Below the pieces are notes generated by a model. The model searched no databases, was not told the origin of the DNA, and saw only the letters and a list, made by a program, of their open reading frames with translations. This document shows positions 5,084-43,056 of a stretch of DNA of 45,227 bases, one piece after another; position 1 is the first letter of the stretch; the number at the start of each line of letters is the position of its first letter. Source of the stretch: a virus; the UHGV virus genome UHGV-0391923, one strand, 5' to 3'. A program made the translations under genes and the position numbers.

Positions 5084-5160
5084 TACCAGTTGTATAGGGT
5101 TGTATATAAGAAGAATAGGCTTAGTGGTGACTTTTAGTATATATAGAATTATTCTCATTT
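5084..5160 (+). repeat. 77-bp element identical to the reverse complement of 39583..39659. Contains TTGTATA x2, a TTAGTG-N17-TAGAAT promoter-like core and the palindrome AGAATTATTCT.
   Basis: Direct base-by-base comparison, 77/77 identical, with weaker similarity beyond both ends. Confidence 0.9.
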
Positions 5161-5200
5161 AGATAGAATATACAAATACCGCTCCCAAATTAACCGCCAA

Positions 5201-16608: not shown

Positions 16609-16630
16609 AGGGCCACACGGCCCTTTCTAA
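16609..16630. terminator. Bidirectional terminator AGGGCCacacGGCCCT between the early operon and the lysis cassette
   Basis: GC hairpin plus T-run. Confidence 0.55.
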
Positions 16631-16693
16631 TTAACGCACTGCACACAAATAGTAACGCTTATTTTGCTATTAATACTGTGAGCAGTACATCCA

Positions 16694-17302
16694 CTAAAGA
16701 CTACGCAAAGCACGTTCAAAAATAACAGCTTCATTAGCAATCTTTTGTGCCTTATCCATGCCATTGATAATCCGACGTGCATTTACATAATCCTTTTTAC
16801 TGTCTGAAATATAGTCTGATAGTTTTCGACCTGTAAACCACCCTTCTTTCATGCCGACAATCATGATTTTAACAGCATGTTCTTTTTTCATAACTAAATC
16901 GGGATTCTGGGTATAATCATAACCCAGTTTGTTTGATGCCTTGTCGTAATTAGCCCACCAAGTAAGCTGAACATAACCACGCCCATAGTATAGATGAGGG
17001 TAGTCATCAAATAGGTATGCTACTTTTTTCAATCCATCAATAAAAGAATACAGTTTGCCTAAACTGTTCTTAAACCATGTTCCATATGGTCTACCTTTTC
17101 CTTTCCCATACTCCTCAATAGGCAGCATGGTTGTAGCAGTTTCATGCCATGTTGTCGCAAGCATGTAGGCTGCTTGTGGATATGAAATGGATTTATCTTT
17201 ATCGAACTCAGATACCAGAAAGTTAATCTGATCAACTTGGCTTTGGTTTAATCGACCTAGATTATTACGCAGTATATTAAATCCACCTGCTGTCATCTTC
17301 AT
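16694..17302 (-). CDS. Endolysin, glycoside hydrolase family 19-like
   Basis: YGRGYVQLTWWANY motif characteristic of GH19 catalytic domains. Confidence 0.75.
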   Translation of the reverse strand: MKMTAGGFNILRNNLGRLNQSQVDQINFLVSEFDKDKSISYPQAAYMLATTWHETATTMLPIEEYGKGKGRPYGTWFKNSLGKLYSFIDGLKKVAYLFDDYPHLYYGRGYVQLTWWANYDKASNKLGYDYTQNPDLVMKKEHAVKIMIVGMKEGWFTGRKLSDYISDSKKDYVNARRIINGMDKAQKIANEAVIFERALRSL

Positions 17303-17517
17303 GATTCCTCACCTCTTTTCTTTTCTTGCTCAGAACTACCGAAGTAGAATCCGCAAGCCGTTGTCATTGCACCCGCAATAAAACCTAAAGCTGTATTAAT
17401 CAGATTGCTATTCTCGCGCGGCATGTCCACAAAGAATAATGCTAGGATTAGAATAAGCATCAAGCCGACTAATGAAAAAGCTAAATATGATCTTGTGTTT
17501 TCAGCGTTCATTGGCAA
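17299..17517 (-). CDS. Putative holin (72 aa, two TM segments)
   Basis: Overlaps the endolysin start; LAFSLVGLMLILILALFFV and LGFIAGAMTTACGFYFG. Confidence 0.55.
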   Translation of the reverse strand: MPMNAENTRSYLAFSLVGLMLILILALFFVDMPRENSNLINTALGFIAGAMTTACGFYFGSSEQEKKRGEES

Positions 17518-17860
17518 TCACCTCAATTCTGGATAGTTTTTCTTTCATCAAAGCATAATCTTGATTGATTTGAATGATTGACGAGCCCACCCAAATACAA
17601 GCCATTAAAACCACACCACCAATGGAGCCTAGAATATACTTAATGGATGATATTCCACCATCCTGCCTTGATTGTCGTGATTCAATATTGCCCACCCGAC
17701 CATCAATTGCTTCAATCATCTGCCTGTTTTCCGCAATCTTGTGTTGATTGGCTTCATTGACAAATGTATGCCGTGTAATGTGGTCTGTTAGCGTCCTGAT
17801 CTCAGATTGAAGTGTGTCAATCTTCTTTTCGAGCCTTAACCCATAGCTTTCATTTTCCAC
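17501..17860 (-). CDS. Coiled-coil protein with a C-terminal TM anchor (possible lysis regulator or spanin substitute)
   Basis: Heptad-rich N-terminus; TM IKYILGSIGGVVLMACIWVGSSII; first gene of the lysis cluster. Confidence 0.45.
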   Translation of the reverse strand: MENESYGLRLEKKIDTLQSEIRTLTDHITRHTFVNEANQHKIAENRQMIEAIDGRVGNIESRQSRQDGGISSIKYILGSIGGVVLMACIWVGSSIIQINQDYALMKEKLSRIEVIANER

Positions 17861-35635: not shown

Positions 35636-35661
35636 AAAAAACCACCCGAAGGTGGTTGTGG
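35636..35661 (-). terminator. Terminator AACCACCttcgGGTGGTT plus TTTTTC
   Basis: Hairpin plus T-run on the minus strand. Confidence 0.5.
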
Positions 35662-35919: not shown

Positions 35920-36074
35920 TCATTATCCTTGTTCTCCTCAATGAAGCTCTCCCATGCATTTTTAAGCTTATGAATATAAATATCCCGATCACCGTAGTTT
36001 CTATCATTGTCACAATGAATAATACTGTCGACAATATATAAAATATTTTCAATTTTATGTTCTGGGTTTTTCAT
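35880..36074 (-). CDS. Small protein with a C-x-D..D-IYIH motif; paralog of 41417..41575
   Basis: HCDNDRNYGDRDIYIH versus WCNPDYEDGIYIH; ATGA-coupled to the head morphogenesis gene and overlaps the next ORF. Confidence 0.45.
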   Translation of the reverse strand: MKNPEHKIENILYIVDSIIHCDNDRNYGDRDIYIHKLKNAWESFIEENKDNDCPYLYKRKENNK

Positions 36075-37189
36075 AATCCCAACTCCTTAAATGTTTTTTC
36101 GTCTAGCGCTCTTAGTTCTGCAATGGTGTAATCATTTCCCAATGGGTCAACAAACTTGGAGATAGGATACTTTCCTTGCTTGTATAACTTGTATCGCGTT
36201 TCGCCTAGCCATTCTTTTTGAAATGACGTGCTGGCTGTTTTGAAAAATTCGGGGAATGATTTGTTAGCATCAACTTGACCAATGATACCTTCGCGCTGAT
36301 CCTTAGGGATTTTCGATACAGGCTTGTCAGATTCCACAAAAGGACGCTTTCCGTCAATCTTTCCATCCTTATCCACCCCGATCAAAATCGCGCGGCAATT
36401 ATAATGTCTTGGCGGGTAAACAATATTTGGATCGCCTTTCTTCCACACGGTTTGGTCAAATGAAGCGCATCCAGTGGTTGTACGCCCATCAAGTACGCTG
36501 ACGTATTTCACATAATCAAAACCCAACACACTAAAAGTTTCTTGCATTGCGGTATTGGCCACTGTTGCGCGTATGGTGCGCACATTCGCTTCAATCCCGT
36601 TTCTGCGGACCTCATCCACGATACCGCCCACATATTCATAAGAGCCATCTTGCATTTTTGTACGCTTGCCGCGAAGTTCAGCCACGATTTGCGCCGTCGT
36701 GTTGCCTTGCTCGATACCCTGGCGCACCGCGTACAGTGCTTTATTGCGCGTCGACTCTGCTAGATTCTTCCACACATCATCAAATAACATGCCGCCCATG
36801 ACTGGCTTTTTCTTAATGCCTGCAATGACTTTGCTTCCGTTGAGTTCAATTTCTTCACCATACAGTTTAGAAATATAAGCAGCTTCATAGGTCGCAAGCG
36901 CAATAGCTGATACCGTGAATGTTTCAGGCACAGTAATCGCAACGGCATTATAAAGTTCGTCAAACGTGGATTTAATCTCTTTCAGCGTGTTGGTTGTGTA
37001 CCGGCCGGACAGTAGCGCATCGCGTTCAGCATCGGTCAGCTCGTCCAGCAGCTCGCGAAGTTTTGTAGCAGTCTGATTCATCGCTTTAGTGAACAAGCCG
37101 TTAAGCTCATTCACCACCGTAGTTGATGCCCTGTAACTGTAAACCTGATGCTGTATTAGAGCATCAAGCATGTTTTGTTCAGTGGTCAT
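36071..37189 (-). CDS. Head morphogenesis / minor head protein (SPP1 gp7 / Mu F-like)
   Basis: Size and position after portal; basic C-terminus. Confidence 0.6.
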   Translation of the reverse strand: MTTEQNMLDALIQHQVYSYRASTTVVNELNGLFTKAMNQTATKLRELLDELTDAERDALLSGRYTTNTLKEIKSTFDELYNAVAITVPETFTVSAIALATYEAAYISKLYGEEIELNGSKVIAGIKKKPVMGGMLFDDVWKNLAESTRNKALYAVRQGIEQGNTTAQIVAELRGKRTKMQDGSYEYVGGIVDEVRRNGIEANVRTIRATVANTAMQETFSVLGFDYVKYVSVLDGRTTTGCASFDQTVWKKGDPNIVYPPRHYNCRAILIGVDKDGKIDGKRPFVESDKPVSKIPKDQREGIIGQVDANKSFPEFFKTASTSFQKEWLGETRYKLYKQGKYPISKFVDPLGNDYTIAELRALDEKTFKELGL

Positions 37190-37530
37190 TTTGGCTCCTT
37201 CGCTTCGATCATGGCTTTTGGCATAACACTAAAATCTATATATGCATGACTTCCAAAATAAAGAATCCACGATAACCTACCATGAGGTTTAACTTCTGGT
37301 TTTTCATGGAACTTCTCAAAACCCACTTCATCAAATAATCTTAAATGTTCAGCAAAAGTTTGTGCTAAATCTTGCGGATCTATTGCTAACTCAGTCCACG
37401 GAATAGCAACAATATCAAAATCAAGATTCATTGTTCCATGTACCGCAAGCGCATATCCATTTTTTCTGGCTATATCACAAAGACCGCAATACATTGATGC
37501 AAATACAGGGGAAAATGTCGCATCTTTCAT
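37186..37530 (-). CDS. hypothetical protein (114 aa)
   Basis: Coupled ORF. Confidence 0.5.
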   Translation of the reverse strand: MKDATFSPVFASMYCGLCDIARKNGYALAVHGTMNLDFDIVAIPWTELAIDPQDLAQTFAEHLRLFDEVGFEKFHEKPEVKPHGRLSWILYFGSHAYIDFSVMPKAMIEAKEPK

Positions 37531-37817
37531 TGGTTTTTCTCCTGCGCTTCGATCACTGCTAAAAGCTCATTTGCAGAACAAACAGCTTCATCATAATCAT
37601 TGGGATTTAGTGATTTGTTCAGCGTATCCTTTGATACCAAAACAAACCCTTCCGGCACCGATTGAGCTTTGGCTTGCCATGCATCACGTGCACCTTTTAA
37701 ATATTCACGTTCAGCAATAGTTAAATCTCTTTCTTTACATGCCTGGTAAAGCTTCGCTACTTCTGGCAAAGCTGCAAAATCCTTATCGTTCTGAATATCC
37801 ATTACAACACACTCCAA
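37527..37817 (-). CDS. hypothetical protein (96 aa)
   Basis: Coupled ORF. Confidence 0.5.
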   Translation of the reverse strand: MECVVMDIQNDKDFAALPEVAKLYQACKERDLTIAEREYLKGARDAWQAKAQSVPEGFVLVSKDTLNKSLNPNDYDEAVCSANELLAVIEAQEKNQ

Positions 37818-38302
37818 AGCGCAAAGCCTAAAATACTAATAATACCAACAACAATCATGATTGCCACTAGGTCACGGTATTGGCGTTTGTATTTCTTGTG
37901 GATAAGCACATCCCTGTTTACTTCTGCCAGTTTTTCGCAAACACGGCCATAAGCGTCATCTAGGTCTTTGTACTCATGCTCTGCAATGTTCAGCTTATGG
38001 GATAGCTTGTTGTTCGCTGCCTGCGATTTACTAAGGTTTTCTTTAGCGGACTCCAGCTCACCAAAATAACGATCCATTCTCTCTGTGAGGGTTTTAATGA
38101 TCTCTCGCTCAGTTACAAGCACACCGCCATTGGATACAAAGTCCAATTCTTTAATAAGCTCATTCTGACGCTCGATTGTAATGCCACGATGCTTCACGGT
38201 ATCCAAATAATACGGATTCTTGCCGATTCGCTCAGACAGTTGCATCTGCGTTAATCCGAGTTTTGCTTTCACTTCTTCGATTTTGGTTTTTAGTTGGTTC
38301 AT
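37802..38302 (-). CDS. Tail-anchored membrane protein with an N-terminal XRE-like HTH and a central coiled coil
   Basis: HTH KLGLTQMQLSERIGKNPYYLD; C-terminal TM LVAIMIVVGIISILGFALWSVL. Confidence 0.55.
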   Translation of the reverse strand: MNQLKTKIEEVKAKLGLTQMQLSERIGKNPYYLDTVKHRGITIERQNELIKELDFVSNGGVLVTEREIIKTLTERMDRYFGELESAKENLSKSQAANNKLSHKLNIAEHEYKDLDDAYGRVCEKLAEVNRDVLIHKKYKRQYRDLVAIMIVVGIISILGFALWSVL

Positions 38303-38442
38303 TTTGCTTGCCCTTTGATTGCAAAGTATGCGAAGGAAGTTAGTGAGATAATAAAAAATATAAGGCTGATTAGTGTGGCACTGGCATTGAGTAAAATTGC
38401 GCTAACAATTAAAAATACTGCTGCTATTTGCGTTATGTTCAT
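38299..38442 (-). CDS. 47-aa hydrophobic micro-protein (MNITQIAAVFLIVSAILLNASATLISLIFFIISLTSFAYFAIKGQAK)
   Basis: AGGAG RBS; TGATG overlap upstream and ATGA overlap downstream. Confidence 0.45.
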   Translation of the reverse strand: MNITQIAAVFLIVSAILLNASATLISLIFFIISLTSFAYFAIKGQAK

Positions 38443-38576
38443 CACCATTTGCTCCTGAATGCTCGTATTTGGTCGATTTCTTTTCTTGCTATGTAGTTGG
38501 TGCGCTTAACCTTGTAATGCAGCTCTAACGCGATTACAGCGCAAATTAGAGCTATTATGATTGCCAGGATAATCAT
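38442..38576 (-). CDS. 44-aa single-TM micro-protein (MIILAIIIALICAVIALELHYKVKRTNYIARKEIDQIRAFRSKW)
   Basis: Stop/start coupled on both sides. Confidence 0.4.
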   Translation of the reverse strand: MIILAIIIALICAVIALELHYKVKRTNYIARKEIDQIRAFRSKW

Positions 38577-38577
38577 A

Positions 38578-38655
38578 TCAAAGCCCCACTATCCAAATGC
38601 CTGCGATTGCAAGGCCGATTAATGCCGGAATTACGATGTTAGAGATTATATTCAT
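38578..38655 (-). CDS. 25-aa hydrophobic peptide (MNIISNIVIPALIGLAIAGIWIVGL)
   Basis: ATGA overlap with the upstream 63-aa ORF. Confidence 0.3.
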   Translation of the reverse strand: MNIISNIVIPALIGLAIAGIWIVGL

Positions 38656-38843
38656 TTTGTCACCACTGGAACTTGCTGAAAGTCGCATCTAGTTTTTCTG
38701 TACTTTGTTTCATGTAGCCTTTTCTGTTTTTCGCATATCTCTCTTGTTGCGTATGTTAGTTGGTAGTCAGATGCCGAGCTAGACTTAATCCCTAGATCAA
38801 CAAAGCTCACTGTCAAAACCCAAACCGTTACCCATGTAATCAT
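38652..38843 (-). CDS. 63-aa protein with an N-terminal TM helix
   Basis: ITWVTVWVLTVSFV; coupled. Confidence 0.45.
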   Translation of the reverse strand: MITWVTVWVLTVSFVDLGIKSSSASDYQLTYATREICEKQKRLHETKYRKTRCDFQQVPVVTK

Positions 38844-38846
38844 GCC

Positions 38847-38951
38847 TCAATCCTTCACAAATAACGCAACTAGAATAAACATCAACACGCCAAAAATGAT
38901 GTTCACAAAGAAAATTGCCAATACTGACATGATTAATAAGATTGCTTTCAT
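38847..38951 (-). CDS. 34-aa hydrophobic peptide (MKAILLIMSVLAIFFVNIIFGVLMFILVALFVKD)
   Basis: ATGA overlap with the upstream ORF; 3 nt before the next ATG. Confidence 0.4.
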   Translation of the reverse strand: MKAILLIMSVLAIFFVNIIFGVLMFILVALFVKD

Positions 38952-39199
38952 TTCAAATACTCCATCAACTTATCTTTGATTAGCTCAAGCTCATCTTGAA
39001 CATATTCAGCGCTGTAAATATCGCTTGGTTTTGATGGCGCTCCCATGTGTATATCAGCATCTTTGTTGATGACCCACCCGTTAATATGAACCCTTATGTA
39101 AACCGTATCAACATGTGGGCTGTAGTCAAAAAAAGCATCATGCCCTTTTTCTTTTAGAGCTATGCAAGTTTTCAGTATTTCCAGTATTTGCTTTTCCAT
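38948..39199 (-). CDS. hypothetical protein (83 aa)
   Basis: RBS GGAGAATGAAATG. Confidence 0.5.
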   Translation of the reverse strand: MEKQILEILKTCIALKEKGHDAFFDYSPHVDTVYIRVHINGWVINKDADIHMGAPSKPSDIYSAEYVQDELELIKDKLMEYLK

Positions 39200-39259
39200 T
39201 TCATTCTCCTATTCAATGATTAAATACTAATCGTATAATTCTAACATGTCAATATATTA

Positions 39260-39547
39260 TTATAAACTATTTAAGTATTTCACGATGTTCTCATGCTGCA
39301 CCACATGAATATCACCTTTTCTTTTAAATCTTGCGATTGATGTCAGGTGGTCAAGATACTTTTCACTGGATTTCCACTGCCCCATTTTTTCAGCAATGAC
39401 AGCACTAATTTCGGGGCGGGTTAATCCGGTTCTTTTCTGCGTTTTTTTCAGGTGACGTTTAATGTCGAATGCGTAACTTTTCAGGTAGTCGATTTCGGCT
39501 TCATTTTGAGTGATTTTGCTTAATGTGTTTTCACTGAGTTTTAGCAT
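39260..39547 (-). CDS. HTH-containing small regulator-like protein (95 aa from MLKLSENTL)
   Basis: HTH-like RTGLTRPEISAVIAEKMG; AGGAGAAAAT RBS; promoter in the 77-bp repeat just upstream. Confidence 0.5.
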   Translation of the reverse strand: MLKLSENTLSKITQNEAEIDYLKSYAFDIKRHLKKTQKRTGLTRPEISAVIAEKMGQWKSSEKYLDHLTSIARFKRKGDIHVVQHENIVKYLNSL

Positions 39548-39582
39548 GGTATTTTCTCCTATATTTTCTCTATTATACACAT

Positions 39583-39659
39583 AAATGAGAATAATTCTAT
39601 ATATACTAAAAGTCACCACTAAGCCTATTCTTCTTATATACAACCCTATACAACTGGTA
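39583..39659 (-). repeat. Second copy of the 77-bp element (reverse complement of 5084..5160), in the same orientation relative to its downstream gene
   Basis: 77/77 identity. Confidence 0.9.
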
Positions 39660-39765
39660 TAAAGAATATATAGAAAAACACGTAAAACATAAGAACATAT
39701 TACTATTATATAACGTATAGAGCTTTTATAAGATTATGTCTAAAATGATCAAATTTTGAGCAGTA

Positions 39766-39788
39766 AAAAGCCCCCTTTCGGAGGCCAA
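39766..39788 (-). terminator. Terminator GGCCTCCgaaaGGGGGC plus TTTTT after the portal gene
   Basis: Hairpin plus T-run on the minus strand. Confidence 0.5.
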
Positions 39789-39790
39789 TT

Positions 39791-41188
39791 TTAGACAAAA
39801 CTCTGCGTCTGAGATTCCTCAATTCTGATACGTTCTTCATCGAAATCCAGCTCTGGAATTTTACCTGTGGCCATGATCTCATGAAGCGTTTTTGCACTCA
39901 TTCGACCCGCAACAACTTCCGACTGGTAGAACTTCAAATCTTCAAGACTGATACGACCTTTGGCAAAGTCCTGCTTGATTGTGAATTTAGCATCGTTGCC
40001 TGAGCCGTAGAACGCTGCACACCATTTAAGGCAATACTCCATAGCTTCATTCAGGTTCGACACGCACAGCGACAATACAGAGTGATTTGTAGCGTCATCG
40101 GAATTGACCTGTGTTGCGGTCTTATTCACAGCACTGGAATCAAGCAATTTCGCGCCCAAGTCCTGCATATACTGCTTTTTGTCGTCCATTGCTTCTTTTG
40201 CCAATGTGTCAATTGGTGCAGTTGCATAAGTGAATTTTCCACTTCCACGCAATACAAGTGGCGTTGCACTGCCTAGCATCACTCCACCTTTCCCTAGTCG
40301 TTCAGCGTCATCATGATCCAATTCACTAAAAACAGGCTGCACCTGGTTGGTGAAGAACACGGATTGTTCGTACTCAGCACTGTTTCGGTAGTGTGCCAGG
40401 TTGATCTCGGCCACTGGTTCAAGCGGAATCTCGTCAATTGACAGGTCATTCACCTGCGCCCCAATTGGAAAAAACAGGATTTCGTTAAGGCGGTTGCCAT
40501 TGATGGTTGGGTAAATCAAATCCCCTGCAAGCATCTCGCCAGTGCGGTCAGAATAAACCTGAATGGAATATTCATTGTTTTCGTCCAATCGCAATACGCG
40601 GTAATTCGTTACAACCTGCTCTTGGAACTCGTTTAATGGATCGGTTTCCGTGGTGAACTCGCGTAAAACTACAAGTGAAGTCCGAAATTCGTTACCGATC
40701 TTCTTAACTCGCCAGTTAATGATATTAAAAGCATCGTATAACGCCATGATTGGACGTATACCGCGTGTTTGAATGTCGGCAGGTGTTACCCCCCCATCCG
40801 TCACAGGATAGTCCACCAAGAAGCCACCACGCCCGAATTTAAGCAATAAGCCTAAAGCCTTTTGATTGAGCTGATAAATCGAAGTGCCTAGACCGTCTGC
40901 ATTATCCTTGAGGAAATCCATGCCATCGGGGTCAAATGTCGGGTCTTCTGCAAAAGCCAAGCCGATATGCGTCTGTAAAGTGTTCTTTGCAATCGGGTAG
41001 AACACGGCACGTTTTAAATACGCCTGATAGCGATTCCAGTTTGTTTCGTAGTCGCTACAAAAGTTAATCATAGGCAGATACAGCGTGTTTGCTTTCTTGA
41101 CCGCTCTTGAGCCACTACATACGTCCTGCATCATCCGCCATCTGTCGGCATTTTCTAAATATTCTAAATGCTGAAAATCTACTGACAT
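39791..41188 (-). CDS. Portal protein
   Basis: 465 aa, acidic, between terminase and head morphogenesis. Confidence 0.75.
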   Translation of the reverse strand: MSVDFQHLEYLENADRWRMMQDVCSGSRAVKKANTLYLPMINFCSDYETNWNRYQAYLKRAVFYPIAKNTLQTHIGLAFAEDPTFDPDGMDFLKDNADGLGTSIYQLNQKALGLLLKFGRGGFLVDYPVTDGGVTPADIQTRGIRPIMALYDAFNIINWRVKKIGNEFRTSLVVLREFTTETDPLNEFQEQVVTNYRVLRLDENNEYSIQVYSDRTGEMLAGDLIYPTINGNRLNEILFFPIGAQVNDLSIDEIPLEPVAEINLAHYRNSAEYEQSVFFTNQVQPVFSELDHDDAERLGKGGVMLGSATPLVLRGSGKFTYATAPIDTLAKEAMDDKKQYMQDLGAKLLDSSAVNKTATQVNSDDATNHSVLSLCVSNLNEAMEYCLKWCAAFYGSGNDAKFTIKQDFAKGRISLEDLKFYQSEVVAGRMSAKTLHEIMATGKIPELDFDEERIRIEESQTQSFV

Positions 41189-42915: not shown

Positions 42916-43056
42916 TTATTTATCCTGAAATTGATAGGCTAAGAAAAAAGCAAAACACATGATTAACACAACAATAAGGCTAATTGCCGTCGGTTGTGAG
43001 CTGTAATTTATAACCGAGCATATTAAAAACACTGCTTGAAATTGTACTCTATTCAT
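42916..43056 (-). CDS. 46-aa hydrophobic micro-protein (MNRVQFQAVFLICSVINYSSQPTAISLIVVLIMCFAFFLAYQFQDK)
   Basis: Strong RBS AAGGAG-N9-ATG directly behind a TTGACA-N17-CATAAT promoter. Confidence 0.45.
   Translation of the reverse strand: MNRVQFQAVFLICSVINYSSQPTAISLIVVLIMCFAFFLAYQFQDK

Follow-up and report, generated by a model that had tools for sequence, protein, structure and literature searches.

In ToxR, TcpP, CadC and RodZ, a single helix anchors an N-terminal cytoplasmic HTH domain to the membrane; ToxR and TcpP have the small membrane partner proteins ToxS and TcpH, and RodZ is a membrane-anchored HTH protein that binds MreB. The phage protein p16.7 combines a membrane helix and a dimerising coiled coil with a small helical DNA-binding domain on the cytoplasmic side. 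This membrane protein of Bacillus phage phi29 organises viral DNA at the membrane (PMC4974454). HK97 gp15, a small inner-membrane protein encoded by a moron in the structural operon, excludes superinfecting phage (PMC3594210), and TraN contacts double-stranded DNA with its HTH helices (PMC6158623).

The locus described here lies in the 45,227-nucleotide genome UHGV-0391923 (the whole stretch analysed, hereafter the window), from an uncultured phage group that probably infects Acinetobacter or relatives. Ten minus-strand ORFs, all at the place given in an earlier note, were read from the sequence between the portal gene (39791-41188; PF13264/phrog_145), whose minus-strand transcription unit lies upstream, and the MuF/SPP1 gp7-type head-morphogenesis gene (36071-37189; PF04233; phrog_241, E = 2e-111). 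MuF and all module genes and regulatory elements given below are also on the minus strand. A 60-nt gap with a promoter-like site separates p95 from p83. The following junctions are p83/p34 (ATGA overlap), p34 to p63 (3-nt gap), p63/p25 (ATGA), p25 to p44 (1-nt gap), p44/p47 (TGATG), p47/p166 (ATGA), p166/p91 (TAATG), p91/p114 (ATGA) and p114/MuF (ATGA), so that MuF, the first structural gene downstream, belongs to the same coupled chain. As read from these overlaps and short gaps, the ORF chain is real and its translational coupling runs into the head gene, as the note had described. Portal and MuF are adjacent in the closest cultured relatives, and the 2.6 kb between them here was shown to be an accessory insertion in which a conserved core is interleaved with swappable cargo. 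Six of the approximately 12 small hydrophobic proteins in the whole 45-kb genome belong to this cluster.

Core and cargo were distinguished by comparing 12 related loci. The core comprises the P1 region, p95, p34, p25/29, p44 and p166. The cargo (here the 63-, 47-, 83-, 91- and 114-aa ORFs; in relatives, HNH homing endonucleases) is inserted exactly at gene junctions, and the 3' end of the upstream gene provides the ribosome-binding site for whichever gene comes next. Two soluble cargo proteins, p83 in slot A (38948..39199) and p114 in slot E (37186..37530), were unique to this phage in the 12-locus comparison; p83 weakly matched phrog_35567 and p114 matched phrog_35913 (E = 9e-21), both of unknown function. 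Slot A of other phages holds an HNH endonuclease or ORFs of 67 or 56 aa. Slot E also carries soluble p91 (37527..37802), a member of a variable, mosaic family present in 7 of the 12 loci, with the common motif AWQAKAQ(A/S)VPEGFVLV and a weak match to phrog_7138 (unknown function); previously read as 96 aa, this ORF most likely encodes 91 aa, from an ATG overlapping the p166 stop codon. The proposed set of five micro membrane proteins held for p34, p25 and p44, which occur in 12/12 loci. p63 (slot B; 38652..38843) and p47 (slot D; 38299..38442) occur in three and two loci, respectively, and are therefore variable cargo. Moreover, p63 is no clear transmembrane protein, having a hydrophobic N-terminal leader of ~12 to 16 residues followed by a polar domain with conserved Cys residues. 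The two-helix hairpin micro-protein p47 has a paralogue at 42916-43056 (44% identity, E = 1e-7), and its slot is occupied elsewhere by a different two-helix protein of 57 to 59 aa or by soluble ORFs.

Among the core micro-proteins, p34 (38847..38951; 68 to 100% identity in the 12 siphovirus-clade loci) consists of little more than a single long hydrophobic helix, in which Asn17 and Gly21 are conserved. Its pN/pS was 0.16, its variable columns were distributed 13/2/21 by codon position, and it was not found in the myovirus lineage described below. The single-helix protein p25 (38578..38655; 29 aa in other phages) has a Gly/Ala-rich helix face (LIGLAIAGIWIxGL) and occurs in both the siphovirus clade and the myovirus lineage. 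Its pN/pS of 0.67 was the weakest coding signal in the core; the hydrophobic helix was retained in an aligned divergent variant. The bitopic protein p44 (38442..38576; 86 to 93% identity in the clade, 63 to 71% in the myovirus lineage; pN/pS 0.25) has an N-terminal transmembrane helix in which Cys12 and Glu18 are conserved, followed by a basic tail, also conserved and predicted to be cytoplasmic (NYIxRKEIDQIRAFR; C-flank charge +4). In IMG/VR, all 12 p44 loci uncut by a contig end had a p166-like ORF downstream. Synonymous divergence was 0.26 to 0.63 across the core comparisons and 0.26 to 0.42 for the micro-ORFs, whose frames were intact in 12/12 loci. The p34 and p44 micro-ORFs are under purifying selection, and the core micro-ORFs are kept in relatives.

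The predicted tail-anchored core protein p166 (37802..38302) bears out the earlier description of an HTH domain, a coiled coil and a C-terminal anchor. From the N-terminus, an HTH head (residues 1-57) and a linker lead into a coiled coil of ~11 heptads (65-142); a basic juxtamembrane stretch then precedes the C-terminal transmembrane helix (145-166). AF2 (pLDDT 85) predicted a four-helix HTH head and a single continuous helix over residues 65-165, and all Foldseek matches of the head were lambda-repressor-like HTH domains, with weak E-values (0.06 to 0.3). The 3.5-residue periodicity was attained by none of 2,000 shuffles; the last 22 residues are hydrophobic, with a charge of +4 just before them. 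The pN/pS was 0.11 for the head versus 0.49 for the coil, and indels were mostly multiples of 7 residues. We found 241 homologues, and the wider family (58 clusters) shares the architecture: a head, a coil of ~60 to 200 residues and a C-terminal hydrophobic end in all members. p166 extends at most 3 residues past its membrane helix and has no periplasmic sensor domain. The family HTH motif LSxxELSxRLGKNxxYLxxxxR matched the DNA-binding HTH of TraN (PDB 6G1T) with a profile E of 1.2e-5 for the whole chain; individual stretches gave E values of 0.002 and above 70.

Upstream of the module, a terminator-like hairpin right after the portal stop codon (39769..39786; GGCCTCCGAAAGGGGGCT + TTTTT), kept with its T-run in nine relatives, closes the portal transcription unit. 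The adjoining P1 region (39548..39768) was defined by alignments of nine siphovirus-clade and six myovirus-lineage loci. It contains the conserved boxes ATACCA...(~38 nt)...TGGT(A/G), a conserved palindrome-containing box, GGAATTATTCTCA, at 39587-39597 (two occurrences in the window), and a conserved -10-like element and AGGAG ribosome-binding site. The notion of a repeat-embedded promoter was borne out: 78 nt of P1 (39582-39659) recur exactly, in inverted orientation, at 5084-5161 (repeat I1). The first gene, p95 (39260..39547), encodes a basic, all-helical 95-aa protein with a lambda-repressor-like HTH fold, and the P1 boxes are kept together with it in both lineages; we infer that p95 is the module's own HTH regulator of P1, acting on these boxes. 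A second promoter-like site, P2 (39224..39265; TTATAATAATATATTGACA-17-TAGTAT), precedes the coupled chain, agrees with the sigma-70 consensus at 10 of 12 positions and is kept in relatives without the HNH insert. The motif TTATAATAATATnTTGACA occurs six times in the window, at operon starts, versus 0.11 expected. The first minus-strand terminator-like hairpin downstream of P2 lies at 35640..35657 (AACCACCTTCGGGTGGTT + TTTTT) and is therefore the probable end of the transcription unit. Because the chain is coupled into MuF and no terminator was found between them in the window sequence, the module is not an independent transcription unit and is possibly expressed late.

The sub-module p95 → p29 → p44 → … → p166 recurs, order unchanged, in an unrelated myovirus-type lineage (Terminase_3, Phage_portal_3, Baseplate_J) beside baseplate genes, and its members therefore travel together as a horizontally mobile unit. 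Lone p166-like genes were found in the early/accessory regions of Acinetobacter phage HFM1 and contig L022. Taken together, these occurrences point to a mobile accessory unit rather than head-assembly machinery. The unit conserved in evolution is p95 + (p34) + p25/29 + p44 + p166 and is not confined to the head genes. An AcrIF11-like gene lies in the neighbouring hot spot in one relative, showing that such gaps accumulate conflict genes.

Searches of Pfam, NCBIfam, PADLOC and PDB sequences returned nothing above threshold for the module, PHROGs matches were limited to families of unknown function, and the module thus fits no known family by these comparisons, in line with the note's failure to recognise one. 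Pfam, PHROGs and PADLOC revealed no exclusion, defence or anti-defence homologue, and Pfam and PHROGs no match of module products to holin, antiholin or spanin families. The products match no lysis or structural families, and a separate lysis cassette, located beside the tail genes at 16627-17860, comprises a holin-like protein with two helices, an endolysin (phrog_181) and an embedded lipoprotein. The earlier description and the lack of a module match stand, and the picture of a five-gene micro-protein operon needs revision.

Our best explanation, which is tentative and falls short of an even chance, is a membrane complex with predicted DNA-binding heads and a role in superinfection exclusion or conflict, a function we infer. 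p166 would be inserted in the inner membrane by its C-terminal helix, with the remainder cytoplasmic according to the positive-inside rule, and would pair through a continuous 11-heptad coiled coil that places the HTH heads ~11 nm below the membrane. The p166 anchor would be packed against by p25/29, by p44 (N-out, with its basic tail inside) and, in this clade, by p34 as well; these single-pass proteins may form the membrane-embedded part of one complex with p166, the basis being their co-occurrence. The complex would bind DNA at the cytoplasmic membrane face. Most likely it would serve the infected cell in conflict, capturing or blocking DNA that comes in through the membrane, much as in superinfection exclusion, rather than serve head assembly. 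The roles suggested earlier (superinfection exclusion, membrane targeting and anti-defence) are plausible. The p166-like genes of HFM1 and L022, by their positions, argue against a head-specific role and support the conflict reading, for which the HK97 gp15 moron is a precedent and to which the TraN-like HTH motif also lends support. Against it, the searches gave no exclusion or defence homologue, the core is present in every clade member rather than patchy, which fits an important housekeeping role too, and the module's possible late expression would be an uncommon timing for exclusion genes. Against DNA binding, membrane-anchored HTH domains can bind proteins instead, by analogy with RodZ. 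The weak Foldseek E-values of the head and the weak coding signal of p25 also count against the proposal.

An unlikely but serious competitor is genome anchoring, in which the complex would hold the DNA of the phage itself at the inner membrane while this DNA replicates or is packaged. The phi29 protein p16.7 recruits phage DNA to the membrane (PMC4974454). p166 has the p16.7 architecture in reversed order, the core is strictly conserved across the clade, and the module adjoins packaging and head genes in two lineages; however, the nearest cultured relatives replicate and package without it, the contexts of p166-like genes vary, and the two proteins have no sequence relation. Next in our ranking, and also unlikely, p166 could be a membrane-resident one-component regulator like ToxR or CadC that, with p95, times the structural operon it heads, the micro-proteins modulating it on phage promoters as ToxS does ToxR. 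The presence of two HTH proteins in a module heading a structural operon in both lineages, the conserved cis boxes of P1 and a nearly invariant p166 head, consistent with a fixed DNA target, would suit such control. It is difficult to reconcile with the lack of a periplasmic sensor domain, with the HFM1 and L022 homologues not being at an operon head beside structural genes, and with the lack of a repeated candidate p166 operator, the GAATTATTCTC box occurring only twice in the window.

Three further explanations have lower probabilities. The micro-proteins and p166 might set lysis time at the membrane as antiholin- or holin-regulator-like factors, given that several small membrane proteins may share expression with late genes and that the p44 layout resembles the N-terminal half of PspB in sub-threshold matches (E = 0.04); the separate lysis cassette, the absence of lysis-family matches and an HTH head with no obvious lysis role make this improbable. 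It is very improbable that the module acts as a nucleator or chaperone of portal and prohead assembly at the inner membrane, as in T4 with portal gp20 and gp40: its placement between portal and MuF and its coupling to MuF agree with the idea, but in the myovirus-type lineage, whose portal and terminase are unrelated, it sits next to baseplate genes, and it is absent from relatives with homologous portal and MuF. Hardly credible is an annotation artefact, in which the micro-ORFs would be open frames that arose by chance in AT-rich spacer DNA. They are very short, most were missed by gene callers, and the p25 pN/pS is high; yet the frames are intact in all loci despite the synonymous divergence, the codon-position pattern (as in p34) fits coding sequence, p29 and p44 are kept across lineages, and ribosome-binding sites and start/stop overlaps are present.

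Returning to the membrane complex with predicted DNA-binding heads, its resemblance to each described system is partial. Acr-aca loci are anti-defence islands with a conserved HTH regulator; unlike them, the module has its HTH gene first rather than last and a conserved membrane-protein core, and no cargo gene matched a known anti-defence family. The p166-family HTH motif aligns with both HTH repeats of TraN from plasmid pIP501 (PDB 6G1T, 4P0Z), but the similarity covers ~45 residues only, TraN is soluble and monomeric and carries an internal dimer fold plus beta wings, and the AF2 head of p166 looks like a four-helix lambda-repressor type rather than a winged helix. With ToxR, TcpP, CadC and RodZ, p166 shares an N-terminal cytoplasmic HTH, one membrane helix and small membrane partners (ToxRS, TcpPH). 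ToxR-type proteins and RodZ, in contrast, carry large periplasmic domains, and their heads are winged helices (ToxR) or bind MreB (RodZ), whereas p166 stops at the membrane and its stalk is a long coiled coil; no Pfam matches of the module to these families were found. p16.7 has the same three elements as p166 but is N-terminally anchored rather than tail-anchored; p166 is accompanied by conserved micro-protein partners, and phi29 differs from this phage in host group and replication mode. Morons with exclusion proteins (HK97 gp15, with T4 Imm/Sp and P22 SieA as functional analogues) are candidates for the closest system. The module shows no sequence similarity to gp15/YebO, Imm, Sp, SieA/B, Cor, Ltp or EexR, is multigenic with two HTH proteins, unlike single-gene morons, and differs further in having no downstream terminator of its own, in its coupling into MuF and in belonging to a phage that shows no lysogeny genes. 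Like the HK97 gp15 moron, it is extra DNA separating structural genes that adjoin each other in relatives, with small inner-membrane products, horizontal spread and its own promoter-like sites upstream (PMC3594210).

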